Shown in pieces: positions 2,981-53,191 of a stretch of 53,958 bases of DNA (within the stretch, counting starts at the first letter, position 1; each line of letters opens with the position of its first letter). A program made the translations under genes and the position numbers. The notes below the pieces were generated by a model. It worked only from the letters and a program-made list of their open reading frames with translations. It was not told the origin of the DNA and made no database searches. Source of the DNA: a virus (taxonomy: Duplodnaviria > Caudoviricetes); the IMG/VR virus record IMGVR_UViG_3300008448_000114, positions 1 to 53,958 of that record. One strand, written 5' to 3'.

Positions 2981-2984
2981 AATA

Positions 2985-7874: not shown

Positions 7875-7900
7875 CTTATATCTTTTTAACAAAAATAGTT

Positions 7901-7957
7901 AATAGCCTCCATAAAAAGAGGCTATTTATATAAACACTTTCTATTACTGACCCATGT
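7901..7957 (-). ncRNA. Cassette A: 3'-UTR hairpin RNA of the giant gene
   Basis: Minus strand AATAGCCTC-TTTTTATG-GAGGCTATT, preceded by an arm complementary to cassette D. Confidence 0.4.
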
Positions 7958-13900: not shown

Positions 13901-16900
13901 AACCTTGACATTAGGGAATGCTTTTTTAAGCCTATCTGTAAGCGTTTTAACGGCCTTTTTATTTGCTGTATTTGCAGGTGCGTTGGATTTGTTAATCGCA
14001 TCAATTAAGGCGTTTCTTGCCTCTACTACGCGATTATTTGCTTCTGATATGACAGGAGGTATAACAGGAATAGGAGCTGCGTAATTAGTTCCAGTCATCC
14101 ATTGTTTAACCTTGTCAACAACTTGTTGCCCCATCTGCCTAACAGCACGCTCTTCTCCTTCTGTTACCTGCTGAGCCAGTTCATCCATTAACTGAACTTC
14201 CTGACCAGGATTTATTGTCCTTGTATAGTTCTGTATTACGGGAGTATTGTCGGGGAGTCCTGTTATTTCTTGGACTGCTTGCTGCGCTTGGCTGCCGAAA
14301 TTGCGATTGCGAGCATCTGCTGCCTGCTGCGTGGTTTGCCCGACGCCCCCTTCTCCTTGCCCGATTTTTTGTTGTCCTTGCTCAACTCCCGTAGGTTGTA
14401 TGAGATTGCTTGGTTGACCGCCTTCTTGCTGCGGCCTTGTGCTGATTTCAGTGGCATATTGTTGTGAATTTAAGTAACGTGATTTTAATGTTTCAAGGTC
14501 ATTTAACCTTTGTGTAAGATTTTCTACATCTGCCATCCTGTTAGAGTAAGGCATATCATTCTGTAAGGCAAACTCATAATCTACTTTAGCCTTCTCTATC
14601 AGGTCTTTAGTGTTCTGTATTTTGGTAGCTAAAAACATTTCAGGATTAGATACAATAGACGCTTCATTAGCCCTAGCAGCATTGCTGTTCTTCTCATTAG
14701 CTACGTACAAATCCCTTAATCTGTTAGAGAAACTCATCCTGTCAATAGGAGTCATATCCACCTCTTCAGCTTGAGCTGTTTGCTTTTGTTCTTCTGTCCT
14801 TGCATCAAGGATGCCATTATTCCCTATCATCGTATCAGACAAGCCAAAATAGTCGTAGATAAGCGTCTTCATTTCAGTAGGCTCAATAGCAAACTGCTGT
14901 TCAGCATATTCTACATCATTTAAAGCCTTATCAGCGTTCTGCATATATGTCTCTATTACTTGAGCAGACGCTTCAGGAGACACCTGTCCGTTCTCTACCA
15001 TTGTGCTTATCTCCTTAGCCTTAACAATATTATCAAGAGCTATTGTCCTTTGTTGCATCGTAGTTTTAGGACTAAAGTTCATCGACATAGCCGTAGGAAG
15101 CCATACGTCTCTTACCATCTCATAAACAGGAAGATTAAGCTCGGACTCTTTTATATTGCCGGACTCTACCTCCTGAATGACTTTAAGTATAGGTGCTATG
15201 TTTTCTTTTTGAGTAAGAGCAGATATAACAAAAGCCTCTTCCTTTGTAATGTTAAGTTCTTTGTTTTTGACAAGCTGTTTCCTTATCTCCTCTTGTGCCG
15301 TATTCCTGTTCTTCATATTTTGGGCAAGTTTTGTACCTCCCCTAAATATGGCAGATGTGCCTATCATTGTAATCAACATATCAAGACTCTGCTGTGCCGT
15401 AAATACCGTAGGATTAAACGTAGCATTCGTCATTGTGTTGAACGTGCTTTGCAATATTGCATTGCCTTTATCTGCAACCTCTTCTTCTAAATATTCAAGA
15501 GAGCCTGACTTTAAAACCCTTCCTGTTCTTTTTGCAAATAACCTGGCATACTCTTTAAATGCTTGAGCCCTTGTTTGCGGAGACATGATACGCTTAATCA
15601 AGTCTTTCGTAAGAACAGACTTACCCCTTCTTAATCCAAGAAGAGATGTTTCTCTTGTAATCATTTCGGAGAAAAATTCAATCCCATTATAAAGCTGAGA
15701 ATAAACTATCTGTTCTATCCCCGTTAATCCAGCATCAGCAGCTTCTCTCATGGCTCTACCTGTTCCTGTTGCAGCAAGATACGCATATCCTCCTGCCGGT
15801 CCACCTGCGATAAAAGCTCCTGAAAATGCCAGCATTTGAGGAAGGGCTTCTCCAATTTGTCCTACAATCTTTCCAGCATAACTATCAGCCTCTATATTTG
15901 TTTCAATCCTATTTTTATACTCTCTTATTGATGCTGATACGTTTGCAGCATTAGGGTTGTATCCACTCCAGTCAAAAGATGAAAGCTTATTGCCTGTTTC
16001 GCGAATACCTTCCATCATCCCTCTTATAGTATTTATAGACTTAATAGCAAATATTATATTTTTAGGAGTGCTTTTATTAAGTGTAGTTACATCCTGCGTT
16101 AATGGTGACAGCAAAGGAAAGCTGTACATATTAGTGTCGGTAAACTTGCTATTGTAGTTATCGTCAATCTCATGAAGTCGGTTTAACACAAATTTGCCTC
16201 TTTCGCTAAAAAGAGCACTTTCGTTAAATATCTTTAAACTTCCATTGTAAGAGTTTACCTTCTTTTCAAAGTCAGGCATATTCTCACTCAAAAATGCTTT
16301 AAGTTCTTTTTCAGGGAAAAGACTTTTAGCTCTTTTAGCTACCTGGTCAAGTTTTAATAACTGCTCATTTGTGCTTTCTATAACCTCTGGATTATTCAAC
16401 ATCAAATCCTTACCGGTAGTGTTTAAGAACTCAATATCGTCTGGCTTAAGGTCTGCATATCTATCTTTGTAGTTGCTCCCTTTCTCCATAAGGAACGACT
16501 TAAGTTTAATGTATCTTACAGCATCTCTAACGTTCTTATCATCGCTATTTTCAAGTGCATTGTATCCGTCATTTAACTCTTTAAGCGCAACTGTATATCC
16601 TGACTGATTATTTATCTTAAGTATTCCTGCTTCTATCAATGACTGGCTTATTTCAAGGTCTATTTTAGCGTCTTTAAAACCGCCTATAACTCCTTCTACT
16701 TCAGGAAGGAAATCTTTTAAAGTAGCATATATTGTTTCAATATCCTTGTTGTCAAGTTTTGTTTTAGCGGCATCTACAAGACTTGCCATGCCCTCTATGC
16801 TGTTAAGATACATGCCCTTTCTTCCGCCTGCCTCATCAAGTATCTGTTGCATAGCAGGTATAAGTTGAGGATTCTTTTTTACCTCAAGAGCAAGAACACC

Positions 16901-18337
16901 ATTATTTATCTTTTGAACTTCCTTACCAAGACCAGTACGCACAAGCTCCTTAAGTAAGAACTCGCCACCTTCAGCAGTTTTAGATAGTAGTGTAAATGGT
17001 GATGTCGCAATACCACCAACAGCCTCCAATAATCTTTCATACGCATCATCGTCTGATTTGCTTTGCTGTCTTATTTCTGCCCATTTCTGTTCAAATTCAT
17101 TTGTAAAGGTAGCCGCTGTCAATACCAACTTAAACCAGTCGGGTGTCTTTTTATCAGACATTAATCCTGTATAGGCAGAAGCAACATTATTCATTTGCTT
17201 GTTTCTATCATCTCCAAGCGTTTTTATCTTAATGTCGGCTTCAGCTCTTGTTAATGAACCTTCTGTTACTTGAGTCTCTATGTCAGATACTCGGTCATCA
17301 AAGTTTACAATTAAGTCGTAATCATATTTAATGGATATTGGCGTTACTTTTTTATAGTTTGCTACAGGAATAAACTGCCCTGTAGATTGGTCATATACTC
17401 CATCTATATCTTTAACTTTCTCTACAATCTTAACTTGCTTTCCTTCGCTGTTAAGTACCGGATTACCTTGCTCATCTACCTTGTTGGTAGCCCTATAATA
17501 CATAGGCTTTGCAAAAGGGGCCATTGTATTTGAATTATACCCATACAATGTAAACCCTCTGAATATGTCACCATCTTTTACTTTATCTTTTTCAAAAGCA
17601 TCTACAAATCCTTCAAATGTATTTATGCCTTTTTGATAGGTCTTCTGTGCCATATCCTCGTACTCAGGAACCGTGTCATCTCCCTGGTGAGTAGAAACCC
17701 TCTCCCATAACTCTCCATTCAATAAACGTCTCCATCTTTCAGTAGAAGCCTTTAGATTTCTTTGTACAATATAGTCAGTAGCCTTTACCTGCTTTATAGT
17801 AGGATTATTATCCTTTATGTAAGACATATTGGTATCTTTCTGATATGTCTCATATTCCTTTTTATACTTTTGTTCAATATCTCTTGTGCCTTGTCTTATT
17901 TGTCTATCCCTTCTTCTTTGGCTCTTTTTATCATTGCCTGGGTTGCGCTCAAAGGCCTGCTGTTGTAAAGTTTCTATTTCAGCGTCTTTCTGAACCTTTA
18001 ACTCTTCTGCCTTCTTTAACTTCTCTTCCTCTGTTGGAGGGTCAGGCAACTTCTCATTCTGTATTGTTTGTAAAGCGTCTTTAGGAAGCTCTGTATAAAC
18101 TTTGTCATCAACAACATAACCCTCTGCTTTCGTTTCTGTTGCTACAGGCTTTAATGACTGATAGATGTCCTTTGCCTGCTTGTCCTGCATGAAGGTTTCA
18201 TCTTCTTCTACTTTACCAAACTCTGTATTGGTAATAGAATCTAATTCAAATAAAGACGCTTCCGATGGTCCGACAAGAGGTTCTTGAATATCTTGTAATT
18301 CAGGATTGATGAATTGTTCGTTTAAGTCTTGAGTCAT
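7958..18337 (-). CDS. Giant polyvalent ejection (cargo) protein with zincin metallopeptidase and ADP-ribosyltransferase-like domains
   Basis: 3459 aa. HEFGH motif (13756-13742) followed by ENEALA; YHGS...IGTGEG.QAFGWGLYFT...DGIKY...NYVVFD block (~13350-12570); G/R-rich C-terminus. Follows the tail genes. Confidence 0.8.
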   Translation of the reverse strand: MTQDLNEQFINPELQDIQEPLVGPSEASLFELDSITNTEFGKVEEDETFMQDKQAKDIYQSLKPVATETKAEGYVVDDKVYTELPKDALQTIQNEKLPDPPTEEEKLKKAEELKVQKDAEIETLQQQAFERNPGNDKKSQRRRDRQIRQGTRDIEQKYKKEYETYQKDTNMSYIKDNNPTIKQVKATDYIVQRNLKASTERWRRLLNGELWERVSTHQGDDTVPEYEDMAQKTYQKGINTFEGFVDAFEKDKVKDGDIFRGFTLYGYNSNTMAPFAKPMYYRATNKVDEQGNPVLNSEGKQVKIVEKVKDIDGVYDQSTGQFIPVANYKKVTPISIKYDYDLIVNFDDRVSDIETQVTEGSLTRAEADIKIKTLGDDRNKQMNNVASAYTGLMSDKKTPDWFKLVLTAATFTNEFEQKWAEIRQQSKSDDDAYERLLEAVGGIATSPFTLLSKTAEGGEFLLKELVRTGLGKEVQKINNGVLALEVKKNPQLIPAMQQILDEAGGRKGMYLNSIEGMASLVDAAKTKLDNKDIETIYATLKDFLPEVEGVIGGFKDAKIDLEISQSLIEAGILKINNQSGYTVALKELNDGYNALENSDDKNVRDAVRYIKLKSFLMEKGSNYKDRYADLKPDDIEFLNTTGKDLMLNNPEVIESTNEQLLKLDQVAKRAKSLFPEKELKAFLSENMPDFEKKVNSYNGSLKIFNESALFSERGKFVLNRLHEIDDNYNSKFTDTNMYSFPLLSPLTQDVTTLNKSTPKNIIFAIKSINTIRGMMEGIRETGNKLSSFDWSGYNPNAANVSASIREYKNRIETNIEADSYAGKIVGQIGEALPQMLAFSGAFIAGGPAGGYAYLAATGTGRAMREAADAGLTGIEQIVYSQLYNGIEFFSEMITRETSLLGLRRGKSVLTKDLIKRIMSPQTRAQAFKEYARLFAKRTGRVLKSGSLEYLEEEVADKGNAILQSTFNTMTNATFNPTVFTAQQSLDMLITMIGTSAIFRGGTKLAQNMKNRNTAQEEIRKQLVKNKELNITKEEAFVISALTQKENIAPILKVIQEVESGNIKESELNLPVYEMVRDVWLPTAMSMNFSPKTTMQQRTIALDNIVKAKEISTMVENGQVSPEASAQVIETYMQNADKALNDVEYAEQQFAIEPTEMKTLIYDYFGLSDTMIGNNGILDARTEEQKQTAQAEEVDMTPIDRMSFSNRLRDLYVANEKNSNAARANEASIVSNPEMFLATKIQNTKDLIEKAKVDYEFALQNDMPYSNRMADVENLTQRLNDLETLKSRYLNSQQYATEISTRPQQEGGQPSNLIQPTGVEQGQQKIGQGEGGVGQTTQQAADARNRNFGSQAQQAVQEITGLPDNTPVIQNYTRTINPGQEVQLMDELAQQVTEGEERAVRQMGQQVVDKVKQWMTGTNYAAPIPVIPPVISEANNRVVEARNALIDAINKSNAPANTANKKAVKTLTDRLKKAFPNVKVIMDKKGFQAALKDEAARDLMTKGGVVYGRVLNGDVYLNPDYANYNTPIHEFGHLWLNAAKEIAPEVYNRGRELIRDSEYMDKLQADPLYEGLSTEEMENEALATAIGDRGEQFFNEVQKQGFRNWLRRLIGKLSQYVGIFNLSKVELDLLTLDEFLNRANASLLAGEAVTFNKMSDRDKLFEVKAYHGSPYSFGKFTTEKIGTGEGVQAFGWGLYFTDVKDIAETYRRTLSSSNLLKDGKEVDDELYATIGAYKKGYNEGEGLYKVSVGLYQGFDKNKILKSLEDHKQVIEDTSWTDEIKNDRLNSLEDVINDFKSGRYSIKEGGSLYDVTLHKGKQPSEYNWLEWDKEGFNDIIEKIDKKVDGFKNRFKTEDTPGLKTTGENIYLQLSRTIGSDKEASLLLLENGIDGIKYPAESISRGATSATSRGSNYVVFDENAVEIEQQTQFMARQQEPSFKSQMIDLANAVMQRELSKGRTLEEARTIATSEVSAAVIANATGKFNNNAVQKQIENYVGEAYNERKIAEQAAARQRRISQAFASPSTQAIVTGANQAAQNIANANVGSRTKTTAKQAYDTVLGQVKASIDRMYANGTVPAGVSWIDMMSLAPAIASDAVRASFPAANRQMFEGEDMVNMTSSQWIKNAVSNQIRAIKDVKDRAKKIEDAVKLILKDFQNRYGRGAQLTTGQIKAIIKDLNDNIFSRDDIMTAVDKGATEISKVVEKAYRKKVLADVQKSFDRLETASSTKYSGEYFDKVKAILGFPLSELPDSSASLEELSKLNGHIKDIVALKLGSIQDAIDILNSISPSNQQKIADEHKSLLTKIKDLINKANTQTLSMLDYKKMMELKKAVEDVQERKNNISALTPQQQADIMQQYGVLMLTDLGDINRIIADKEQDIKIETTALVGKIKTELADELSDIRNKIPNGVLYQQFLSFMTSLSDDYLSNLSPANMLSLSSALSQVYDYGNYSNMVYTEYVKALRWKQRDGGYKWGTEIAARRNEITATGLTGFVQNAFRNFARTFTDVEGATPSADAISRNLDLLKITALDYELYNEFDRLNMGYLEREIFGPMAASIDAAMVKTQSKLGQLQTAMIAFSDKSNHATIKKAIGQVLKTYDVSGSILGMSLRNKLREGRAASFLNDISVRMAAIVAHQIDHISNNPAQIIDRVLQRNIFEVKAGEKGVTFMEGTMFDYFTKGGVSFKSLEGNNNKFMDAIAYAALTNGGTTTLKDLTEGKLMDLLTDKQKEGLAGWREHINQNRETFEAAQVIVGNMGASVKNYFPIRVYGDKTVTEVTDPMAYLNGQFSNLGIDKGQTISRSGETGTIDLDANKVLLHNMKALNLMVEVMPFLQQIKGLGDAINDVKTAKDVNEFSAAYLEGVDKNLTERLKANLSHNERVVNDDFGYTFRLMSSAQSFAARVWLISVTRQLFADFPANIGKLTSALGFENKKFGNQILQLLSPKKSRYTTDTGTYKWDDYVEIANLTGSPVYKVMSLYADNFLYEFKKTPEELQRQQRVASWQDMAVKKHGWMSRFEEAFKRITGEYLDHQKFKDERGVYRASNMDAVLQASSVADSFTDRQFSLPSFTRQPLRKQLLAPFLGRGIRNMFDTDKRKISLAKDNPLAILTGFLQGYPTTQHQLYNSYIKLAFSTRSGLSLGKRAEYLTRAVLEGIVPSITYSIFRSYMGVLYLSTAAAVYAAAGDDDDPKAVENKIKELDKKEGWDKYIETIKTGLKAKSKAVNEVIINGIASTAIDPQTSFFWRTALGMAAFYMYKEGATERLLTMDKRQRKKAMMQMRQKEASWFNMYNVRPIEIYGGKTYDEAIRAFYSAEEPTKGWEDLVNSFSGISAIHGLSTTVNDIRRYYAASGEDTKVDSKETAIAAGLTAYGYIFANMMIGGKFGFFLNMVSGDLRNIGTKILKEQRPEVVQEERKQEKKTRRGFTMFFEPGESGGKKGSRGGSGRGGGSGRGRGGSGRGGGGR
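14263..14457 (-). CDS. Small basic protein nested out of frame in the giant gene
   Basis: MPLKSAQGRSKKAVNQAISYNLREL...GKPRSRQQMLAIAISAAK, with leader TAAATTCACAACAAT-ATG resembling the capsid gene leader. Confidence 0.6.
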   Translation of the reverse strand: MPLKSAQGRSKKAVNQAISYNLRELSKDNKKSGKEKGASGKPRSRQQMLAIAISAAKRSKQSKK

Positions 18338-18341
18338 AGAA

Positions 18342-18349
18342 CAAATATA
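18342..18349 (-). promoter_or_regulatory. Bacteroidota-type -7 box, probably leaderless transcript
   Basis: TATATTTG-TTCT-ATG directly before the giant gene. Confidence 0.6.
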
Positions 18350-18399
18350 AGAATTGTTAAGAATATAGTATATGGATTATTTAAACACAATGGAGGTTT

Positions 18400-18720
18400 T
18401 TCCCTGCACTTAACAGCGCGGCGACCAAAAAAGCGTGAGTCGTTGCTTTTTAGCTCATCCAACCAAAGATTCCCTACCCCTGCTACTCCAATACTAACAA
18501 AAAAATACACGGGCTTGTCAGTATCAGTAATTATTTATAGGAGGAACAGCTTTTGCCCATATATCATCATGTGCAGGTACTCGTTGTCACCTCTAAGACA
18601 GAGCGAGATATTTTCTGTTCCTATCACCACCAAGCCCTTCCTGAAAATTAACTTCATTATTGCCGATGGCTATCTTCATGGATATGTTTCATTGTACTCA
18701 TGTGGGTGAAACACGGAAAA
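18400..18720 (-). ncRNA. Candidate ~320-nt structured ncRNA
   Basis: Nested inverted repeats GGGCTTG(18511-17)/CAAGCCC(18631-37), GAACAG/CTGTTC, TGTC/GACA, TGTTTCA/TGAAACA in a gap with no credible ORF. Confidence 0.45.
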
Positions 18721-18730
18721 GACCACAATT

Positions 18731-18830
18731 AAAAAACCCTTGCAGGGAGCAACTACAAGGGCTAATTTAAAAGGGTCTTAATCCTTAAAGATTAACCCGA
18801 TTACGTATTGCTCCTACCTAATCGGATTCT
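18731..18830 (-). ncRNA. Three-hairpin kissing-loop RNA ending in a terminator
   Basis: Loop GGAGCAA in hairpin 1 is complementary to loop TTGCTCC in hairpin CCCTTGTAG/CTGCAAGGG-TTTTTT. Confidence 0.55.
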
Positions 18831-18836
18831 CTAACA

Positions 18837-18867
18837 CAAATCTATAACAGATTTATCAAACCACAAA
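18837..18867 (-). promoter_or_regulatory. Bacteroidota sigma-type promoter
   Basis: TTTG-N19-TAGATTTG on the minus strand. Confidence 0.6.
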
Positions 18868-18874
18868 ATATTTT

Positions 18875-27371: not shown

Positions 27372-27421
27372 ATAAAAGGCCACTGTAGAAACAGCAGCCT
27401 AAACCTAAAACATGAAAAAAT
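27372..27421 (-). ncRNA. Cassette B: anti-start-codon sRNA candidate with hexaloop terminator
   Basis: Minus strand TTTTTTCATGTTTTAGGTTT-AGGCTGCTG-TTTCTA-CAGTGGCCT-TTT. Confidence 0.5.
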
Positions 27422-27439
27422 CAAACTTTATATCAACAC

Positions 27440-28414
27440 TTATTCAGAAACTACGTTTTTAAGGGTTTCGTAAAATTCGTTAGCTTCCTTCGTTTTTGTC
27501 ATCGCAAACTCGGTAATAGACTCATACGCCTTCTTACCCAAAGGAATCTCACAAATCACCGCACCATCCTTCCAGCAGGCATATCCTTTCTTCGTAGATA
27601 CATCAATATGCCCATCGTCAATCCCTTTCTTTACAAAGAACTGAACTTTGGAGATAGTGGTTCCGGCAGACTTCATGAAAGCGTCAGGATTAGCACCGGC
27701 CTTATTAGCGTACTCTACACGTACTTTAGCTATCGTTTTCTGCTCTCCGTACTCGTTTGTCATACCAATGCCTAAGTACTGGGCATGAATCATCATATCC
27801 TCTACAGAAGCGTTCATAGAGAAGTTAATAGCCCTTAATCTTGCTTCTTCTTTTTTCAGCTCATTAGATTCGTTTTCTGCTGTATTTACAAGGGTATATC
27901 TTGCTTTCTTATTACGCATACGGTTCTCCTTCTTATCGTAATCGTCGCTGTTAAGTAAGAAGTTCAACAGCGTTCTATTGGTACGAGGAACGCGCAGTAT
28001 CCCATTGTTAAAGATAATATCCTGCTTGTTACGCTGGATGTACTGAGGAGTAAACCCTTCCTGCTCATCCATCCAAATAGAACTTGCTCCACGGATAAGA
28101 CGAATCGTTCTTACGGAGTTGCTTTGTACGTCAAATACAGGCATCTCATTCACCAAAGACTCATAAGACTTAGGCTTAACATCAGATGGCAATAACAGCT
28201 TAAAGACGTACATATCCGGCTCTTTCTGTTGCACCTTAATCTTTTCTTCTGTCCTCTTAATCATGCGTTTTAGCTGTAAAGAATCATCATCTTCAAATTC
28301 TTTAATAGTAGCTTGAGAGGTTGTTCTCTCTTGAGTAACAGCACCTGTGCTGTCATCAAATGCGTTCAATACGGGTAGTTGAACTTGTTGTTTTACCTGT
28401 TTTTTCTCTGACAT
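27440..28414 (-). CDS. Conserved protein downstream of the capsid gene (crAss-like head module)
   Basis: IRLIRGASSIWMDEQ...IIFNNGILRVP...LLNFL. Start at MSEKK, after TATATTTG at 28438-28431. Confidence 0.6.
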   Translation of the reverse strand: MSEKKQVKQQVQLPVLNAFDDSTGAVTQERTTSQATIKEFEDDDSLQLKRMIKRTEEKIKVQQKEPDMYVFKLLLPSDVKPKSYESLVNEMPVFDVQSNSVRTIRLIRGASSIWMDEQEGFTPQYIQRNKQDIIFNNGILRVPRTNRTLLNFLLNSDDYDKKENRMRNKKARYTLVNTAENESNELKKEEARLRAINFSMNASVEDMMIHAQYLGIGMTNEYGEQKTIAKVRVEYANKAGANPDAFMKSAGTTISKVQFFVKKGIDDGHIDVSTKKGYACWKDGAVICEIPLGKKAYESITEFAMTKTKEANEFYETLKNVVSE

Positions 28415-28440
28415 ATTACTTTGTTTGATACAAATATATA

Positions 28441-28500
28441 AAAAAGCCCTCAATTTAAAAAAAGAGGGCGATGATTAACTCTAAACAAAACTTTATGAGA
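28441..28500 (-). ncRNA. Cassette C: stand-alone anti-start-codon sRNA candidate
   Basis: Own TATATTTG box (28512-28505), then CTCATAAAGTTTTGTTTAGAGTTAATC, hairpin GCCCTC/GAGGGC and TTTTT. No ORF. Confidence 0.55.
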
Positions 28501-28527
28501 TACGCAAATATACGATTATATACGAAA

Positions 28528-28586
28528 CAAAAACCCCCGAGTATAAACAAGGGGGGCCAGTAATAGAAAACAGGTAAATCCAATGC
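28528..28586 (-). ncRNA. Cassette D: sRNA candidate
   Basis: Box variant TAATTTTA (28596-28589), arm GCATTGGATTTACCTGTTTTCTATTACTGG, hairpin CCCCC-TT-G-TTTATA-C-TC-GGGGG, TTTTT. Confidence 0.5.
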
Positions 28587-28645
28587 TGTAAAATTACTCC
28601 TATATCAACTATTATTTCAATCTATCAATCAACACATAGCAAAAG

Positions 28646-28667
28646 AAAAACCCCTCTTTTGGAGGGG
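28646..28667 (-). terminator. Intrinsic terminator of the capsid gene
   Basis: CCCCTC-CAAAA-GAGGGG-TTTTT. Confidence 0.75.
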
Positions 28668-28691
28668 CCTTCTTTCTATGCTTAGTTAAGA

Positions 28692-30056
28692 TTAAGCACT
28701 GATACGAACGAAGCGGTTTGCACCGAATACGCGCAGACCTGCATAACACAGGTGGTGTACGTTCAGTTCAGCCACATCGCTGGTAGGACTCTTAGCGAAA
28801 GCACCAGTTTCCCAAATATGAAGGTCTTTACCATTCACGTTGTTGTAAGTGATTTCGATTGAGTTGTAACGCTCTCCAGTTTGAGGGTCTTTACCTTGAG
28901 CCATCGGAACCACGATACCGTAGTTTTTGTACTGATGGTCAGCAGGAGTAGCACCATAAACAGCTTCAGGAGAGAACGGCAGGTACTTCTTAATGTGGAA
29001 GGTATAACCATCCATAGTGATAGAACCGAAACCGTACATAGCAGCAGCTTCTTTGCTACCACCTACAGTACCCCAAAGGATAGCACCGGCATCGTACAGG
29101 TCGAACAGTTCGTCATCCAACTCTTGACGTAAGAAAACGTCAGCAAGAAGGTGATTCTCCATAGAACCTCCGTTGAAATCCAAAGCACGAGTTACTTCGT
29201 GAAGCTTAGCTCTGTCTAAAGAACCAGCAGTATAAGATACGCCAGTACCACGGTTTTCGATTTGATTCAGAAGACCGATAGTGTTCTTAGAAGTAGCAGA
29301 AGCGTTTGTGTTAGTAACGTCTTTACCGAACATCAGAGTAAACTCTTTGTTGTTCATATAACGCTTAACAGCTTCGTCAAGACCTTTGTAAGAGTAGTTC
29401 TCACCAAACCAGATTTCTTCAATCATAGCACGGTCAGTTACTCTCCAGTCTTCACGGATTTCAGAAACGTAGTTCAGAACTTCTTCAACGCGGGGAATCA
29501 GAGCATCTCCTTTAGAAGAAGCTTCACCTACCGCAGCTTGTCCACGGAAGAGAATCCACTCGTTAGCATCCAAACGACCATCAACAGCAGCAGACTCAAA
29601 TTGTTGAGTAGAGCTAAGAGGGCGTACAGTTGCCTGGTGAGCGCCAGCAGAAGTTTTATCAACTGAAACTACTTTACCTTGAATACCGGTAGAAGCGATT
29701 TCAACGATTTCACCAACACGAATAGGAGATTTAGAACCGCTATCGTAGTGAGAGCCGGAAGTCAAAGTGAAAGTAACAGCAGAACCATTGGTTGCGCCAG
29801 TTACGTTAGCTTGAACCTGAACAGCTTGGTGCATTTTACCCAAATCTTCCCAGTGACGGATAGTTTGAGATTTCACCTGTCCTTTAAACCCAAGCATTTC
29901 CAACAGCATAGTGTAGTTTTGAGCACCATACTTGCTGATGAATTTAGGGTAGTACTGAGGCTTTAAGATACTAAGGTCACTAACGATGCCTCTCGTTAGG
30001 CCTGCGCCAGGATTTACAAACGCTGACGGTTTCTCTGAGGCTGAATTGTATGCCAT
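28692..30056 (-). CDS. Major capsid protein
   Basis: 454 aa, follows the scaffold gene, ends in CYAGLRVFGANRFV, biased codon usage, own terminator. Confidence 0.85.
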   Translation of the reverse strand: MAYNSASEKPSAFVNPGAGLTRGIVSDLSILKPQYYPKFISKYGAQNYTMLLEMLGFKGQVKSQTIRHWEDLGKMHQAVQVQANVTGATNGSAVTFTLTSGSHYDSGSKSPIRVGEIVEIASTGIQGKVVSVDKTSAGAHQATVRPLSSTQQFESAAVDGRLDANEWILFRGQAAVGEASSKGDALIPRVEEVLNYVSEIREDWRVTDRAMIEEIWFGENYSYKGLDEAVKRYMNNKEFTLMFGKDVTNTNASATSKNTIGLLNQIENRGTGVSYTAGSLDRAKLHEVTRALDFNGGSMENHLLADVFLRQELDDELFDLYDAGAILWGTVGGSKEAAAMYGFGSITMDGYTFHIKKYLPFSPEAVYGATPADHQYKNYGIVVPMAQGKDPQTGERYNSIEITYNNVNGKDLHIWETGAFAKSPTSDVAELNVHHLCYAGLRVFGANRFVRISA

Positions 30057-30082
30057 TTTTGTGAGATTTTAAATTTTAAAAA

Positions 30083-31201
30083 TTAAGTGTTACCAAAAAA
30101 GAAGTTTACCATTTCATCTTGCGAAGCTTGCTGCTCGTCTGGTAAACGCCTACTTACCGATTCCTGGAAGTTAGCGTTCTTCAAACCCTTAACGAAAAAT
30201 GACTTTGCCTGATTTACAGCCTGACTTACGTGTGCTTCAACAATCTTATCAAAGTTCTCCAACACGTAGAGGTCGTGAGCTATGGACTCTGTATCAAAGT
30301 CTCCATTCTCGTCAATGTAGCGCGGCATAAAGTAGTCCTGTAATGTAAAGTTCTCCATCTTATCTTTCAGTGAAGCCTTTTCGTTGGCATCAATGACATA
30401 AGTCGTATTGAACTCTAACTCACTGTCCTTGTACTTGCTTTCAAAACCTACAATTTCATCAATGGTTGCAGGAATCGCTTGCATGTACTTGTCTCTGAAC
30501 TCCTTGATTGCCGCCTCTTCAGCTTCATTTGAAACCGCCTGTTGCTGTTGAGGAGCGCTCGTTTGAATATCCGGTAAAACTATCTCCTGCTTTTTGCTGT
30601 TCAAGAACTCTTTCGCCTCCTTTAAGTCCTTCTTCTTCAAACGCTCCATGTTGATTTTCTCACGCTCAAACTTCTTCTTCTCTTTTGCAATCTCCTCTGG
30701 AGTGTCTAAATCCTCATCAATATCCGGCTCTTGAACACCGTACTTAAAGTTGAACTCATCATCTACTTCCTCGCTTGACAGCTCAGGGTTTTCTTGCCTT
30801 ATCTTAAGTTTAAGCACATCGTCTGCGCTCATCTTATCAAGTGAAGCAAGTTGTTGCTGTTGCTGATACACGTTTACTACCTCATCTATCTTTCCTTCCT
30901 TTAAGTACTCGAATACTTTCTTTGCAGTATCATTAGCAAAATTAATCTCTTGATTAACAGGTTTATCAGCTAATTGAAGTAATTCATCAACACTTTTAAA
31001 TTTTCCGCCTGTTCTTTCTGCTAAAAGGGCTTCAAAGTCTATACCTGTTGAAGAATCATTGTTTGCTGTTTGCGAATCAGAAACTGATTGCTGTTGTTGT
31101 TGAGGTTCTGCCGGCTGAGATTGTGGCTGTCCTTGCGGTGCTTCGCCCATCTCACCAGACGTGATTAAATCCTCAAACATCGAAGATGTTGAATTACTCA
31201 T
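30083..31201 (-). CDS. Capsid scaffolding protein
   Basis: Acidic, Q-rich coiled coil immediately upstream of the capsid gene. Confidence 0.7.
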   Translation of the reverse strand: MSNSTSSMFEDLITSGEMGEAPQGQPQSQPAEPQQQQQSVSDSQTANNDSSTGIDFEALLAERTGGKFKSVDELLQLADKPVNQEINFANDTAKKVFEYLKEGKIDEVVNVYQQQQQLASLDKMSADDVLKLKIRQENPELSSEEVDDEFNFKYGVQEPDIDEDLDTPEEIAKEKKKFEREKINMERLKKKDLKEAKEFLNSKKQEIVLPDIQTSAPQQQQAVSNEAEEAAIKEFRDKYMQAIPATIDEIVGFESKYKDSELEFNTTYVIDANEKASLKDKMENFTLQDYFMPRYIDENGDFDTESIAHDLYVLENFDKIVEAHVSQAVNQAKSFFVKGLKNANFQESVSRRLPDEQQASQDEMVNFFFGNT

Positions 31202-31221
31202 TGTTTTCTATTTTATTGTTA

Positions 31222-31353
31222 TTAATACTTGGTCTTACCTTTCATCTTACCCATAGCAGTGTTTGCTTTTTTGGATACAGGTGAGGCTTTACCTTGCTTT
31301 TTTGCCATTTTCTCTTGCATTGCTTTAAATGCTTCGTTCTTTTTTGCTTTCAT
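31222..31353 (-). CDS. 43-aa K/M-rich basic peptide
   Basis: Hand translation MKAKKNEAFKAMQEKMAKKQGKASPVSKKANTAMGKMKGKTKY with an A-rich leader. Confidence 0.6.
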   Translation of the reverse strand: MKAKKNEAFKAMQEKMAKKQGKASPVSKKANTAMGKMKGKTKY

Positions 31354-32634: not shown

Positions 32635-35025
32635 TTACTGATTTTGTTGTTGTTGCATCATTTGATTCTGCATCATTTGTTGTTGTGCTGCATCATTCTC
32701 ATCTACCATACCTTGTAGCTCATCTACCTGGTCAGGAGTAATACCTTGTTGTGCTAAAAACTCCATCTGAGCCTGTTGTTGCTGTTGTGCTAACGCCTGC
32801 TCTTCCATCTGCTTCTGACGAGCCTTCTCAGCAAAATACCCATCCACTATATCCTTCACATATCCAGTAAGTTCTTTACCCTCCTTGAATGACATCAACA
32901 GCACATCATGTACAAATTTCTGCATATTTTCGTCATTCTTAAATCTTGATGACGATTCATCAATCATTACCTGCATCTTAGCCTTAGCCTCCTCAATAGC
33001 AGCATCTGCCTGCATCTTAGCCTGTGCTGAACGTTCTTGTATCTGTGCGTTCATCTCCGAGTTCTGCTGAGCCTTCTGCATCTCGGTTTGCATGCGTTTG
33101 TTCTTAGCTCTTGTAAGATACAACTCCTGCAACTTCACATTGTCAAGCCTTCTGATTTTAAACGCATCATCAAAGTCAATCATGTTATTTGATATAGCGT
33201 TGTTTGTCATCGACTCAACATAAGCCTTTTCAACATCATCAGGAAGCATCTCTATCTTAAACTCAAAGAACATATTCGCAAGCTCTTTATTGCCGAAGAA
33301 CTCACGATACGCTGTACCACCATACACCACAGAATCATGAAGCAAGATGCCTATTTTCGAAAGCGTCTGCTCAGTAATCTCCAAATAAGAGTCATAGATA
33401 AAATCAGTAGCATTGTTAGATTCGCGGATTTGAGATTCTAAAACACCTAATCCCATCTTGGGATTAACACTTGAGCCTTCCCTGTATTCATTGATACCTA
33501 CCTCATCACGTATCTTAGCCACATAGAAATTATAGACCTGTATAGACGCATTAATTTGGTTAATATTACCAATATTTGGTAATTCATTAATCGGCAAAGA
33601 CCTTCTTTCACCATCCTCATCTACACTATTGTAATATATGTTACCAGTCTGGTCGTAAACCCTTTGAATCTCAAGAGGCTTGACTTGTCCTTGACCTAAA
33701 TCTACTTCCTTCAATCCGGATATGTCAACAGCAATACCAGATGGTCTCATCTTAGCTATTAGTTGCTGTATCTTCATGTGGGTAAGCGTAATCATACGAA
33801 CCGAAGAACTAATCCTTTCAGCAAGAGGGGTATTATTCATACCTATGTTATTAGGCATATACACCGAATAGCTGAAGTAAGCTTTAGACAGCTCTTTAGG
33901 ATTAGAAGGTCTAATCATAGGACTGTTAGGCTGGAACTTCAGCAAACGATTTGATTGAGGAAGATACACACCTGCGTATATAACCTCCATCTCTTTCTGT
34001 ATAACCAATTTATCCTCTCCTACGTTCTCAGGTCTTCCCTTCTTGCGTTCTACATACTTTCTGTTCTCCCTGTTCTTCTCTACCCAAAACATTGGTCTAA
34101 CGGTCTTCGCCTCAAAGAACAGCACCTCTATGGCATAATCGTCATAAGGTCTTGAACCAGGATTCATGTACTCATTCTTCCACTTAAACGTATATGGGCT
34201 AACGCAATCCTTAGATGTCTTAGCTATTTCAAATAGTTGTTCTTCTGTAAGTCCAAATCTCTTACGCAATTCGTACAACTTCATCGACTTACGATGCCCC
34301 ATAACTGACGCATCTGCCATATCGTTCCTCTCTGAATAAGAACAGAAAAAGTCTATCGGATTGATAGCTTCTACGATTACTGTTCCGTCTCCGTCAGCTC
34401 TTGTATAAGTGACTCCATATCCTCCATCTCTAATGTGGCAGAGTAGATTACGTTTAATGTCATTCCAGTTGTTGTTGTGCAGTACCATTGATGCACCTCG
34501 CTCCATGAGTATCTCTTCGGGAGTTCTGTAATCAACGTTGAAGAAGATGTCCAGTTCGTCATAACTTTCAGGTTCAAAAGTTTCTCTGTTTTTATACGTT
34601 CCTAATGCCTCATCAGCCATCTTATTAAACTCAGGCTCAAGCATACGGAACTCAGCCATAGCCTTATCATACTTCTTCTTTTTTATGCTAACAGGGTCAA
34701 CAGCAGTACATCTTGGCTTCTCTCCTCTTTTCATAAAACCACCAATAAGCACCTCCATGAATTTAGGTGCAATCATTGGAGGAGTCCAGTCAAGGTTGAC
34801 ATAAGACTGCTTGCCATCTATATTAAGAAACTGCATGTAGTCTCTCATGTCCTGCCTTCCTGTGGACAGCTTCATGTTCTTAGCTATCTCTACGTTTCTT
34901 TTCTCAAAGTATTCATTACTAACAATAGAATGAACATACTTAGCCATTTTCTCACCAAGTTCGGCATCAGAAACGCCATCCAGGTTGAGCTGAAACTGCA
35001 ATGTTGGATTATAAAATGGAGTCAA
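32635..35025 (-). CDS. Portal protein
   Basis: 796 aa after TerL; NLDWTP....PKF, YDQTG..Y, IRDEVGINE.REGS; Q/M-rich tail. Confidence 0.85.
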   Translation of the reverse strand: MTPFYNPTLQFQLNLDGVSDAELGEKMAKYVHSIVSNEYFEKRNVEIAKNMKLSTGRQDMRDYMQFLNIDGKQSYVNLDWTPPMIAPKFMEVLIGGFMKRGEKPRCTAVDPVSIKKKKYDKAMAEFRMLEPEFNKMADEALGTYKNRETFEPESYDELDIFFNVDYRTPEEILMERGASMVLHNNNWNDIKRNLLCHIRDGGYGVTYTRADGDGTVIVEAINPIDFFCSYSERNDMADASVMGHRKSMKLYELRKRFGLTEEQLFEIAKTSKDCVSPYTFKWKNEYMNPGSRPYDDYAIEVLFFEAKTVRPMFWVEKNRENRKYVERKKGRPENVGEDKLVIQKEMEVIYAGVYLPQSNRLLKFQPNSPMIRPSNPKELSKAYFSYSVYMPNNIGMNNTPLAERISSSVRMITLTHMKIQQLIAKMRPSGIAVDISGLKEVDLGQGQVKPLEIQRVYDQTGNIYYNSVDEDGERRSLPINELPNIGNINQINASIQVYNFYVAKIRDEVGINEYREGSSVNPKMGLGVLESQIRESNNATDFIYDSYLEITEQTLSKIGILLHDSVVYGGTAYREFFGNKELANMFFEFKIEMLPDDVEKAYVESMTNNAISNNMIDFDDAFKIRRLDNVKLQELYLTRAKNKRMQTEMQKAQQNSEMNAQIQERSAQAKMQADAAIEEAKAKMQVMIDESSSRFKNDENMQKFVHDVLLMSFKEGKELTGYVKDIVDGYFAEKARQKQMEEQALAQQQQQAQMEFLAQQGITPDQVDELQGMVDENDAAQQQMMQNQMMQQQQNQ

Positions 35026-37786: not shown

Positions 37787-38110
37787 TTACTTTTTTAGGA
37801 ACGTCTCCAGCGGATTCCTCGATACTAACGGCTTCTCCTCCTCCTTCGACTCTCCCACTTTGAGTTCCTTCTTTAACCACAGCAGGTTTTGTGCTACGTC
37901 TTTGCTGTCCACCATTGCTTTCCATACGCGTTCAAATGTTTTATCGTTTTTAGATTTAAAGGATACGTATTCTCCGTTTAGCTCTTCTGCAAGCTTTACT
38001 ATCTGATAGTTCAAGGCATGGTACAGTCCTTGCAGTCCGTCTGCCTTATAGGTCTCCAACTCCTTTTCGAGTTCCTCTATCCTTTGTTTCAGTTTTACTA
38101 TATCTGTCAT
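37787..38110 (-). CDS. Small helical protein, terminase small subunit candidate
   Basis: Size and position upstream of TerL only. Confidence 0.4.
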   Translation of the reverse strand: MTDIVKLKQRIEELEKELETYKADGLQGLYHALNYQIVKLAEELNGEYVSFKSKNDKTFERVWKAMVDSKDVAQNLLWLKKELKVGESKEEEKPLVSRNPLETFLKK

Positions 38111-38745
38111 ATTCCAATACGCATTGTTTCGTTTATTTCAAATGTATGGTCTATCGCCATAATGTCTTGTTCTTTGATACGGATGATACGATGCTCACGA
38201 CCTTCATGCGCATACACAACCTCATAGTCAGCCATAGTCTCTGTAATAAGCACATCTCCTATGGCAAATATGTCATATCCTGATGGTGTACCCTTAACTA
38301 CAACCCGGTTGTTTTCTTTCTGTTCATTGATGTCTGTCAGTATAAGAGATGACTTCGGTTTGTAATATATCCTGTCAACTAACAGATAGCCTTCCATTGG
38401 TATTGGATTGCCATTATCAATGTAAAAGAATATCTTATCGGGTCGAAGGATATGTACTTCCAGTTTCTTTTTACCTCCATATACAGAATCTTCATCGGTG
38501 TCGATGGTATCTACGAGTGTATGTTCGGTAAACGAGTTGTGCCAGCAGACGATAGGAGTACCTTCTTTGAGGCTAGTCTTTCCTGGACTTTTGACGATGG
38601 CATTGACAGCATTCTTCTCTCTTTCGTTCCATCCAAAGTCTTTGTCGATAAATAGTTTGATGTCGGTTCCTGCGATGGTGTGGGTGTACTTATCCTCTTT
38701 ATCTACAATAACGATAAGCTCCCCTCTGATTGGTTTGGGATTCAT
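38107..38745 (-). CDS. Tandem GroES-like co-chaperonin
   Basis: Two repeats of P...(L)IV ... V ... (E/I)G(T/D).(I/L), ending IRIKEQDIMAI. Confidence 0.65.
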   Translation of the reverse strand: MNPKPIRGELIVIVDKEDKYTHTIAGTDIKLFIDKDFGWNEREKNAVNAIVKSPGKTSLKEGTPIVCWHNSFTEHTLVDTIDTDEDSVYGGKKKLEVHILRPDKIFFYIDNGNPIPMEGYLLVDRIYYKPKSSLILTDINEQKENNRVVVKGTPSGYDIFAIGDVLITETMADYEVVYAHEGREHRIIRIKEQDIMAIDHTFEINETMRIGI

Positions 38746-38790
38746 TGCTGTTTCTATTTGTCACAAATATAGGAAATTTTGTGACTAAAC

Positions 38791-44826: not shown

Positions 44827-45297
44827 ATGACAAAGCAAGAAAAACTCGCTGTTAAAAGCAGCCTGCTGTCTATAAAGGACAGCTTATTCAGAGACGCATG
44901 GGAAGATATTGTATCTGACCATCCGTATGTAGAACAAGACGACGACGACATCGAAGATGATGTGTTAGTTATAGCAGATGCACCGGAGAAACCATCTTGG
45001 AAAATAGGTGAGGAGAAGATTCAGCGTAGGCGTAACGGATTTAGCTTTAATGACATGGAGAGTGCAATAGATGAGTTAGTGAGACTATGGGGCGTGGAAT
45101 CATTTACTCAACCTCTAATGTCATATACTCTAGGCGAAGAAGAAGGCATGGGGCTGTACTTTAAATCTAAAGATACATTCGTGCGTAGTAGCGATGCGTC
45201 TCTAGGTATCGTCAATACTAATGACGAAGACGAACAAGCATACCTTCTGCATATAGGATATAAAAGATTCTCCGATATAATTATAAACGATAACTAA
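44827..45297 (+). CDS. Hypothetical early protein
   Basis: 156 aa; C-terminus similar to the next gene. Confidence 0.65.
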   Translation: MTKQEKLAVKSSLLSIKDSLFRDAWEDIVSDHPYVEQDDDDIEDDVLVIADAPEKPSWKIGEEKIQRRRNGFSFNDMESAIDELVRLWGVESFTQPLMSYTLGEEEGMGLYFKSKDTFVRSSDASLGIVNTNDEDEQAYLLHIGYKRFSDIIINDN

Positions 45298-52389: not shown

Positions 52390-52757
52390 AAGACCTAGTG
52401 ATGATTCCGCTGATGTGGCTACCGCCTAAGGTGCTAAGGCTTATCAGCTCCAAAGAGAAAGCCCTTCGTAACGATGGGATGCACGACTTCTTTACCGATG
52501 AGATGTCAGGCGAAGGCGACATATACTACATTGATACTGTCGGCAGGCTCATTGTAGAGCGTATCAAAATGTCGGTTGTAGAAGATGCTGTTCTTACCGG
52601 AGTGTCAACCACGATGCTGGTATGCGACATCAAGCACAACCAAATCATGTTCCCTATGCTTGAAAAAGTATATTGTGAAATTCGTGGGAAAAGATGTACC
52701 TTAGAGCTGTCATTTGATGACGGACTATTATCACAGGTAAATTCAATTATTGTATGA
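52377..52757 (+). CDS. Hypothetical protein
   Basis: 126 aa, ATGA overlap with the next gene. Confidence 0.6.
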   Translation: MDRVEDLVMIPLMWLPPKVLRLISSKEKALRNDGMHDFFTDEMSGEGDIYYIDTVGRLIVERIKMSVVEDAVLTGVSTTMLVCDIKHNQIMFPMLEKVYCEIRGKRCTLELSFDDGLLSQVNSIIV

Positions 52758-53191
52758 CACCCGTAGGAGTGCTTATAGAATCCACGCTCAAAGAACTCTC
52801 CGAGAGAACAGGTATAAAGTGGACAGCTCAACTGACATCGAAGGGATTTATAGTATATCGTAAACAGACGAACGAGGACTATGTTGCATCCGAGTACAAC
52901 AAATGGCGTGATGCCTGCTGTGTTATCTTCAACATAGGATACGATACTCTCGACAACGATATAAGAAACGGCAAGAACGTCAACCCTCGTCATTGGTGCT
53001 GGTACATGATGTTTGCTATCTCAGGAGTTAATATTGACAGCATCGTTAAGCTACTCAACGGGCAGAAGAACAGGACATCTGTCCTGCATGCAATCAGAAA
53101 GATACACAACTTCTTGTATCGCAAAACTCCAGACAGGAAGTCGGTAGATGTGTATGGTAAACTAGTGGAGTATTATCAATCTTTAAAATAA
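52754..53191 (+). CDS. Protein with DnaA C-terminal (domain IV)-like HTH
   Basis: R....VNPRH..WYM.......IVKLL...NRTSVLHAIRKI. Confidence 0.75.
   Translation: MTPVGVLIESTLKELSERTGIKWTAQLTSKGFIVYRKQTNEDYVASEYNKWRDACCVIFNIGYDTLDNDIRNGKNVNPRHWCWYMMFAISGVNIDSIVKLLNGQKNRTSVLHAIRKIHNFLYRKTPDRKSVDVYGKLVEYYQSLK

Follow-up and report, generated by a model that had tools for sequence, protein, structure and literature searches.

A candidate antisense small RNA 3′ of the capsid gene in an uncultured phage with Bacteroidota-type promoter signals

In a 2025 review (PMC12197685, citing Citron and Schuster 1990), the c4 RNA of P1/P7 is described as an antisense RNA that, with limited complementarity, binds stretches around the ribosome-binding site of a phage mRNA and blocks its translation; it controls the antirepressor of temperate phages, and its antisense bases lie in structured loops (PMC12197685). 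The candidate described here, cassette D, resembles c4 in being phage-encoded, in not overlapping its target, in facing mRNA of its own phage and in having a specificity that differs between related phages (PMC12197685), but it differs from c4 in its linear 5′ seed, in its position 3′ of the capsid gene and in its apparently several targets, and the two have no sequence in common. VpdS of vibriophage VP882, of ~50 nt, acts on phage and host mRNAs (PMC12197685), and D would likewise be small, trans-encoded and of phage origin; VpdS uses Hfq in a gamma-proteobacterium (PMC12197685), whereas D has no known chaperone and the targets considered here are from the phage only. OOP and aQ of lambda and sar of P22 are short phage RNAs which tune phage genes by base pairing (PMC12197685), as D would, but they lie opposite their targets and are fully complementary to them (PMC12197685), whereas D lies on the same strand as targets that it matches over 11-15 nt. 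On the side of possible hosts, small RNAs of Flavobacterium psychrophilum such as Rfp18 are described in PMC9723704 with a sigma-A -7 box TAnnTTTG at -12 to -5 and with intrinsic terminators, signals to which the -7-like box and the hairpin of D would correspond, and one pairing region of Rfp18 is predicted to match several mRNAs, as is that of D (PMC9723704); these are host genes, with no sequence relation to the phage cassette. Finally, the sponge pair AgvB/GcvB (PMC12197685) is the model which an earlier note on this DNA had proposed for D and for cassette A, the 3′ UTR of a giant gene 20 kb away. Sponge complementarity of the AgvB/GcvB type is conserved (PMC12197685), whereas that of A is not.

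The kind of RNA proposed here is already known from c4 and VpdS; D is related to none of the RNAs described above by sequence or through Rfam, and the support for it is comparative. The available text of the 2025 review contains no word beginning 'Bacteroid' (PMC12197685), and a literature search for phage-encoded small antisense RNAs in Bacteroidetes returned only unrelated work. If the reading given below is right, D would be a compact regulatory RNA in an uncultured freshwater phage with Bacteroidota signals, and the system could show antisense-RNA control of translation where mRNAs are without a Shine-Dalgarno sequence.

The capsid-gene spacer and the anatomy of cassette D

The DNA analysed (the window) is one whole IMG/VR record of 53,958 bases, linear and ~75% complete, a fragment of a phage genome. 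The genes that serve as landmarks are:

32635-35025, minus strand: portal gene (PHROG 6547)
30083-31201, minus strand: scaffold-position gene, 372 aa, named by its position
28692-30056, minus strand: major capsid gene (PHROG 13704; Pfam SU10_MCP, 26.7 bits vs a cut-off of 24.1)
7958-18337, minus strand: giant gene, 3459 aa (stop codon 7960-7958)

The 324-aa, 372-aa and 212-aa genes that figure below as targets received no function from PHROGs or Pfam, and a Megablast search with 27400-31300 found nothing in the phage collection. A tRNA scan of the whole window found none, and Rfam covariance models run over the whole window gave no match at or above the gathering threshold; the sole sub-threshold match, to ctRNA_p42d (22 bits vs 50), fell on the terminator T1 of the capsid gene. 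Spacers in the window follow one plan, in which a stop codon is followed by a G+C hairpin, a T-tract, a TAnnTTTG box and, a few to ~20 nt further on, an ATG. In Bacteroidota, the primary sigma factor uses TAnnTTTG as its -7 element, at -12 to -5 (PMC6847099, PMC9723704), and initiation in Flavobacterium uses unstructured A-rich start regions without Shine-Dalgarno pairing (PMC6847099). Because the spacers carry Bacteroidota-type -7 boxes, the host is probably a member of Bacteroidota, judging from these signals only.

A capsid search gave relatives at 7 IMG/VR loci and 21 metagenome loci. Of these, 21 loci include the spacer, and together with the window they yield 15 distinct spacer sequences; the alignment omits L007, L084, L087-L089, L091 and L092, which are without the capsid-gene 3′ end or the spacer. 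In this clade the spacer 3′ of the capsid gene has grown to 277 nt, compared with ~80-120 nt in most of the distant relatives. The latter (39 in number, with ~35-50% capsid identity) keep the layout of T-tract, TAHHTTTG and ATG behind the capsid gene in 38 cases, and mostly have one terminator and one promoter there, to which the window's clade adds two short units, D and E, in both of which a -7 box precedes a conserved segment and a U-tract hairpin. In the order of the minus strand, the spacer contains:

28646-28672, minus strand: T1, the capsid-gene terminator, detected in the terminator scan with an 11-bp stem
28589-28596, minus strand: -7-like box of D, TAATTTTA, of the form TA[A/T/C]TTTT[A/G], in the same place in 15/15 distinct spacers
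28529-28584, minus strand: cassette D, candidate small RNA of ~56 nt, with its start predicted at 28584 and its 3′ end at 28529, where the U-tract ends
28560-28583, minus strand: core or seed of D, TTGGATTTACCTGTTTTCTATTAC, 24 nt, identical in 15/15 distinct spacers except for three columns
28534-28556, minus strand: hairpin 2, the terminator of D by the terminator scan, followed by TTTTT at 28533-28529
28440-28512, minus strand: unit E, in which the -7 box TATATTTG at 28512-28505 is followed by the conserved segment GTTTTGTTTAGAGTTAATC at 28491-28473, by hairpin 3 at 28469-28446 and by a U-tract
28431-28438, minus strand: -7 box of the next gene, directly after unit E

The stem of T1 varies in sequence between lineages while its pairing is maintained. 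Unit E is possibly a second small RNA.

The start of D at 28584 is placed by the geometry of the -7 box (-12 to -5; PMC6847099, PMC9723704). The box ends 5 nt 5′ of the core, and the predicted start falls 1 nt before the onset of conservation. The full consensus TAnnTTTG is present in 6 of the 15 variants; the other 9, the window included, have an A in place of the near-invariant G at -5. Sequence 5′ of the core diverges freely and the flanking spacer diverges as well while the core stays, reading TTGGATT[T/G]A[C/CT/AT]CTGTTTTCTATTAC across all 15 variants. In predicted folds the 5′ ~27 nt of D are largely unpaired, and the 3′ hairpin with its U-tract forms in 14/14 folded variants. Hairpin 2 looks weak for a terminator, having a 5-bp stem and a 12-nt loop. 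Covariation is seen in its stem, where the pair 52-67 reads CG 13 times and GC once, and the pair 53-66 reads AU 5 times, CG 3 times and GU 3 times; its loop, TTGTTT[T/A][T/C]AC, is conserved. In two loci, L073 and L090, a NUMOD4/HNH_3 homing-endonuclease gene has been inserted directly behind this hairpin, and D is intact in both.

The core occurs once per contig and in only 6 IMG/VR contigs, the same 6 being found with two search patterns. Its pattern had no match in bacterial genome contigs, which yielded no attB-like or host copy, and it is present in none of the 39 distant relatives, which confines D to a narrow clade. Rfam, which includes a c4 model, has no family that matches D. As regards expression, 16 of the 23 runs listed were RNA runs which contain part of 27400-30100, all with small shares; the contigs of 4 metatranscriptome runs cover only 28708-29500, within capsid coding sequence, and are silent on D, and RNAs this short are unlikely to be assembled. 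Taken by its anatomy, D looks like a constrained RNA gene of the small-regulatory-RNA type, with a candidate transcript.

Complementarity of D to gene starts

In each genome we searched for perfect complements to the D core which that genome carries. The best match on the same strand in the window is a 12-nt perfect complement ~155 nt downstream of D, inside the start of the next gene, and corresponding sites are found in the relatives at about +8 to +26 in all three lineages:

28392-28403, minus strand: best-supported target site of D, AAAACAGGTAAA, +12 to +23, codons 4-8 of the gene 27440-28414
Lineage 1 (window, L072, L074, L079, L073/L090): D TTTAC-CTGTTTT, site AAAACAG-GTAAA, 12 nt (11 in L074)
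Lineage 2 (L004-6, L077, L078, L080, L082, L083): D TTTAATCTGTTTT, site AAAACAGATTAAA, 13 nt
Lineage 3 (L001-3, L075, L076, L081, L085, L086): D TTGACTCTGTTTT, site AAAACA-AGTCAA, 6 bp + 6-8 bp with a 1-nt bulge

The sole variable bases of the D core face the variable codon of the target, as TTTAC-CTG/CAG-GTAAA in lineage 1, TTTAATCTG/CAGATTAAA in lineage 2 and TTGACTCTG/CA-AGTCAA in lineage 3. Shuffled cores gave a match as long in 21/20000 trials for the window, in 9/20000 for L004 and in 802/20000 for L001, where only its 8-nt run is counted. In L074 the nucleotides AAACAGGTAAA are retained in a different reading frame (MSKETGKK vs MSEKKQVK). L073 and L090 have the 161-aa HNH gene between the two arms, which puts ~775 nt between D and the site, and both arms are retained; these two loci are omitted from the alignment used for folding (A5) for that reason, and their site was checked separately.

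Folded without guidance, the 14 aligned sequences of a 230-nt stretch gave, by RNAalifold, a predicted helix between D and the site together with hairpins 2 and 3. Pair 24-229 of this helix is G-C in 6 sequences, U-A in 4 and U-U in 4, the last reflecting the register shift of lineage 2. With the columns held fixed, 91.0% of cells are paired, compared with 44-63% when the arms are slid against each other, and 0/500 shuffles reach 91.0%. In terms of covariation by fixed column, 1 of the 15 pairs has changed on both sides (4 cells) and 8 are invariant, a score reached by 36/500 shuffles; the remaining matched change takes the form of indels and register shifts, counted per sequence and among three lineages only. 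Formal covariation between D and the site is thus modest. The predicted duplex energy averages −13.9 kcal/mol within lineages (n = 68), compared with −8.9 kcal/mol across lineages (n = 128), and the cores of lineage 3 pair about equally with their own and with other lineages' sites. Overall, complementarity between D and the next gene appears to have been kept through changes on both sides, in three lineage-matched versions.

Further matches lie at the starts of other genes. Start regions were taken to extend from -25 to +30 around the first ATG in every open frame of at least 60 aa, which makes the start calls crude. Apart from D itself, perfect D matches of at least 11 nt fell in such regions in 2/2 cases in the window, 5/5 in G004, 2/2 in G005, 1/4 in G001 and 1/3 in G003; shuffled cores equalled these counts in 6/1000, 0/1000, 12/1000, 81/1000 and 93/1000 trials, respectively, so that the enrichment is not significant in G001 and G003. 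When start regions were ranked by their predicted energy of pairing with D, the same four orthologous genes were among the top 7 of 75-102. One is the next gene, with rank 5 in three genomes. The sites in the leaders of the other three are:

52733-52747, plus strand: ACAGGTAAATTCAAT, -21 to -7 of the 145-aa gene (52754-53191)
31202-31212, minus strand: AATAGAAAACA, 11-nt perfect match abutting the ATG of the scaffold-position gene (30083-31201)
38748-38759, minus strand: AAATAGAAACAG, upstream of the 212-aa gene (38107-38745), paired with a 1-nt bulge at −16.4 kcal/mol, rank 3

The leader of the 145-aa gene pairs with the first 15 nt of D over 15 bp (14 Watson-Crick and 1 G-U, −18.6 kcal/mol) and ranks 1 of 91 in the window, 1 in G004, 2 in G001 and 4 in G003. 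It is best matched by the D of its own genome in 4/5 genomes, the exception being G006, which has a lineage-1 site in this leader and a lineage-2 D. The encoded protein has a weak DnaA_C helix-turn-helix match (24.6 bits vs a Pfam cut-off of 31.5) and is 60-74% identical between lineages. The scaffold-position gene, for which the earlier note had given the 11-nt complementarity to D correctly (31212-31202), ranks 6, 1, 3, 5 and 1, that is, within the top 6 in 5/5 genomes; its site is retained in lineages 1 and 2 and has a T-to-C change in lineage 3, where D is without a matching change. The 212-aa gene ranks 3, 2, 6 and 3, and in relatives its leader has, next to the ATG, a perfect run of 13 nt in G001, 14 nt in G003 and 12 nt in G004. 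The scaffold and 212-aa sites match a different part of D and have only ACA(G) in common with the other sites.

Interruptions of the helices were found in three places, L074, the window's 145-aa leader and the leader in G001, and all three are G-U compatible. Among start-region sites of at least 10 nt, the mRNA is complementary to D in 16/42 and identical to D in 0/42, with a mask slightly stricter than that used for the counts of at least 11 nt. Because start regions are A-rich and the seed is T-rich, matches are inflated, and this explains part of the orientation bias.

The match between D and the 3′ UTR of the giant gene

The observation from which the earlier note started is accurate. The minus-strand segment 7953-7935, GGGTCAGTAATAGAAAGTG, pairs contiguously with minus-strand 28572-28554, TGTTTTCTATTACTGGCCC, over 19 bp, with 15 Watson-Crick and 4 G-U pairs and a 12-nt perfect core. 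The further statement that both arms sit just 5′ of hexaloop hairpins holds for A, with a 10-bp stem and a 6-nt loop, and fails for D because of the different loop of hairpin 2. The elements on the side of A are:

7935-7953, minus strand: A arm, within the giant-gene 3′ UTR, 19 bp with D, unconserved
7890-7926, minus strand: hairpin of cassette A (7926-7901) and -7 box of the next gene, TATTTTTG (7897-7890)

The length of this duplex is near chance and not convincingly above it. Compared with itself, the minus strand of the window gives 18 contiguous Watson-Crick/G-U duplexes of at least 19 bp, 5 of which have at least 15 Watson-Crick pairs. The A-D duplex is the best pair among the 8 minus-strand intergenic regions (1416 nt); dinucleotide shuffles of those regions reach at least 19 bp in 46/1476 trials, and 19 bp with at least 15 Watson-Crick pairs in 21/1476. 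Shuffled D units have a partner of at least 19 bp somewhere on the minus strand in 77/1000 trials, and against the 101-nt A region alone, which was picked after the fact, shuffled D reaches 19 bp in 1/5000. On the D side, 3 of the 19 positions (28556-28554) fall in the C run of the hairpin 2 stem. Moreover, G-U-tolerant matches are favoured between a pyrimidine-rich seed and the A/G-rich end of the giant gene, which encodes a Gly/Arg-rich tail.

The A region was recovered in 4 relatives (3 distinct sequences), none of them from the window's own lineage; it was searched for in records G001 and G002 and not found there. In these 4 relatives the D arm within the 24-nt core is unchanged (13/14 positions), whereas the A arm has been replaced in 4/4, reading CGT-CTATAAAGTG, AGA-CAATAAAGTG or AGATAAGAAAGTG. 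None of the 4 relatives has a duplex at the homologous place in A. The longest duplex between the D core and the A region is 9 bp (4 Watson-Crick) in L009 and L012, 8 bp in L011 and 13 bp in L010; with flanks, the L010 duplex extends to 15 bp (11 Watson-Crick + 4 G-U), but it is shifted into the coding tail of the giant gene and is not homologous. Towards its 3′ end (CTGGCCC) the D arm differs even between D's nearest relatives. What is conserved in the A arm is limited to its last bases, AAAGTG, which form part of a different motif, AAAGTGTTnAnATAAA. Folded locally, 7960-7885 reaches −20.5 kcal/mol (z −4.15), with the A arm paired to the downstream -7 box region. By its sequence layout, the hairpin and box of cassette A is an ordinary terminator-plus-promoter spacer.

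The proposal that D and the giant-gene 3′ UTR are a functional RNA-RNA pair, either as small RNA and sponge or in trans control of termination or read-through, is the least probable of the readings considered here. The duplex does exist and is the best of its set, equalled by 21-46 of 1476 shuffles and by 1/5000 when D is tested against A alone, and L010 together with L004 has a different 15-bp duplex of D with the last codons of the giant gene. However, the pair was picked post hoc from a window with 18 duplexes of this length, its CTGGCCC part overlaps the terminator stem of D, and its A arm is occupied in its own local fold. The complementarity is also absent in the 4/4 relatives compared, none of the window's lineage, where the D core is unchanged and the A arm rewritten; this is the outcome that the earlier note had named as refuting its proposal, and it speaks against a sponge pair and against control of termination or read-through alike. 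Most likely, the 19-bp match is fortuitous and window-specific, a coincidence of the seed and a few unconserved flanking bases with an A/G-rich, unconserved 3′ UTR, and it should not be carried forward. From the earlier view of D as a regulatory RNA we retain the small-regulatory-RNA anatomy and the seed matches to initiation regions, and give up A as the partner.

Interpretation of D and its alternatives

The reading we prefer, with a probability of roughly 60%, is that D is a phage antisense small RNA of ~56 nt which pairs with the initiation regions of the phage's own mRNAs and lowers their translation. What the analysis shows directly is the sequence features themselves, how far they are conserved, the complementarity, and the changes matched between D and its sites; from these we infer transcription of D as an RNA of its own, action in trans and a repressive effect. 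The near-invariant, unstructured 5′ 24 nt would be the seed, which would pair with codons 4-8 of the gene 27440-28414, its clearest target, and with the 5′ leader of the 145-aa helix-turn-helix-like gene (52754-53191), and probably also with the leaders of the scaffold-position and 212-aa genes. Free D RNA would occlude these start regions, so that 30S binding would be blocked and translation lowered; such a block would be expected because Bacteroidota mRNAs, being without Shine-Dalgarno sequences, need an open A-rich start region. The RNA could arise from a promoter of its own, or it could be freed from capsid-gene transcripts that have read through T1 and terminated at hairpin 2; D may indeed be without its own promoter, because the box has an A at -5 in 9/15 variants. 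The three lineage-specific pairs of seed and target amount to natural 'compensatory mutants', which could be tested in a Flavobacterium reporter system.

The same imperfect box would also suit a long-range helix in cis, in which D, not a separate RNA, serves as the 5′ arm of a stem formed only in capsid read-through transcripts that cross hairpins 2 and 3. The stem would mask codons 4-8 of the next gene, and translation would be limited to transcripts begun at that gene's own promoter (28438-28431). D and its best site do lie on one strand ~155 nt apart, and RNAalifold folds both arms together in the 230-nt stretch, but two U-tract hairpins and two -7 boxes lie between the arms, and in L073 and L090 both arms have been kept at ~775 nt from each other through the inserted gene. 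Moreover, a cis stem does not account for the further start-region matches, which lie 3-24 kb from D and in one case on the opposite strand; such sites favour action in trans over a cis stem, and we consider the cis helix unlikely. A DNA-level reading, which seems to us distinctly unlikely, takes the words shared by the sites (ACAGGTAAA in the window, ACAGATTAAA in lineage 2) as operators that bind a protein, perhaps the 145-aa protein in autoregulation, with a protein specificity that would differ between lineages as in phage immunity regions. That one site lies in the leader of the gene with the weak DnaA_C match, that all sites within a genome change together and that the 145-aa protein is 60-74% identical between lineages would all fit this. 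However, the scaffold and 212-aa sites match another part of D, and because the targets overlap one another only through D, an RNA hub is favoured over a DNA operator. The interruptions of the helices are G-U compatible, the mRNAs are complementary to D in 16/42 sites and identical in 0/42 (composition explaining part of this), and D is flanked like an RNA gene.

It could also be that there is no pairing at all, that D is kept for protein binding, as an antitermination-type signal or as an invertible promoter, and that the matches are compositional. D does have a linear conserved box, separated by a variable spacer from a hairpin whose loop is conserved and whose stem covaries, a layout which we take to resemble nut-type sites; the start-region enrichment is weak in 2/5 genomes, and D together with its site makes up an inverted repeat that encloses two promoter boxes. 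For an invertible switch, however, 12-13 bp is a short repeat compared with invertase sites, and 21/21 spacer-spanning loci have a single orientation, while the absence of pairing is at odds with the joint change of D and two separate sites and with the shuffled-core controls of 21/20000 and 9/20000. This reading therefore appears very improbable.

An extension of the antisense reading, more ambitious and in our view doubtful, is that the capsid-gene spacer encodes two tandem 'anti-leader' small RNAs, D and E, which time the phage programme by base pairing alone. D would switch off an early helix-turn-helix regulator and somewhat lower the output of several structural genes. E (28500-28440) would act as an antisense RNA to the leader word TCACTCTAAACAAAA-ATG, which many opposite-strand, presumably early, genes have in common, and it would silence that class of genes once the late region is transcribed. 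If this were true, seeds and leaders would co-evolve by lineage, giving private regulatory codes where initiation is not based on Shine-Dalgarno pairing.

Small open reading frames antisense to D and E were considered and rejected, since these frames are not conserved: they are inconsistent among the variants and absent in L076 and L077. In an uncontrolled comparison among the distant relatives, the inner segment of the extended spacer of L031 and L032 gave a duplex of −19.6 kcal/mol with the start of the next gene.

Unit E in the capsid-gene spacer

The spacer behind the capsid gene holds, 3′ of D (the candidate small RNA of ∼56 nt), a second short unit, E, whose -7 box (TAnnTTTG, the promoter element of the Bacteroidota primary sigma factor) matches the consensus. 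From its sequence, E may be read as a candidate second small RNA.

28440-28512, minus strand: unit E, with consensus -7 box, conserved segment GTTTTGTTTAGAGTTAATC and hairpin 3
28512-28505, minus strand: -7 box of unit E

Several opposite-strand genes have a common word in their leaders, TCACTCTAAACAAAA, which often directly adjoins the ATG; the segment GTTTTGTTTAGAGTTAATC is antisense to this word. Examples of such matches come from the window and from two relatives.

Window: 45300 (12 nt), 49433 (11 nt), 51134 (10 nt)
G004: 32914 (14 nt), 35371 (13 nt), 35854 (11 nt)
G003: 47052 (12 nt), which fits this genome's own E variant

Shuffle controls for the start-region matches were uneven across genomes: 1000 shuffles per genome equalled the matches once in G004, 39 times in G003 and 55 times in G001, and the match count in this control was none in the window and none in G005.

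Variation around D and metatranscriptome contigs on the capsid gene

In two relatives (L073, at 2611-3096, and L090), a homing-endonuclease gene of 161 aa with NUMOD4 and HNH_3 domains and low G+C is inserted immediately 3′ of the hairpin of D, and the 3′ half of this hairpin is duplicated downstream of the inserted gene. Both loci retain D, E and the target site (codons 4-8 of the next gene) despite the insertion. In G006, the record behind L006, D and the next-gene site are of the lineage-2 version, but the leader site of the 145-aa gene homologue is of the lineage-1 type, and this mixed set of sites suggests module exchange between phage lineages.

Contigs from four freshwater metatranscriptome runs, whose libraries may contain DNA, match the capsid coding region (window 28708-29500), some of them differing at 0-1 positions across 102-548 nt. 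They end 16-19 nt short of the capsid stop codon, and such contigs cannot show RNA ends.

The 3459-aa gene and repeated words

Upstream of the 3459-aa gene lie 537 non-coding nt (18338-18874, minus strand) with several hairpins that carry T-tracts. Because its -7 box is only 4 nt from the ATG, the sequence suggests a nearly leaderless mRNA. The protein ends in a Gly/Arg/Ser-rich repeat (window 7958-8060, minus strand). The DNA coding for this repeat is rich in purines (GGAAGAGGTGGT and similar words), and the stop position of the protein varies among relatives.

The motif AAGTGTTGATATAAA begins at stop codons or just 3′ of them, a few nt upstream of terminator hairpins.

7925-7939, minus strand: AAGTGTTGATATAAA
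27427-27441, minus strand: AAGTGTTGATATAAA
41027-41041, plus strand: AAGTGTTGATATAAA

With up to 3 mismatches it has 10 matches against 4.45 expected, a count reached in 2 of 100 shuffles, and the copy at the A site, the 3′ UTR of the 3459-aa gene, is kept in relatives. A near-palindromic 19-nt word, GCTGTCCTTTATAGACAGC, and its reverse complement stand 38 kb apart, at 44865-44883 and 6114-6132, and form the sole 19/19 Watson-Crick pair in the window.
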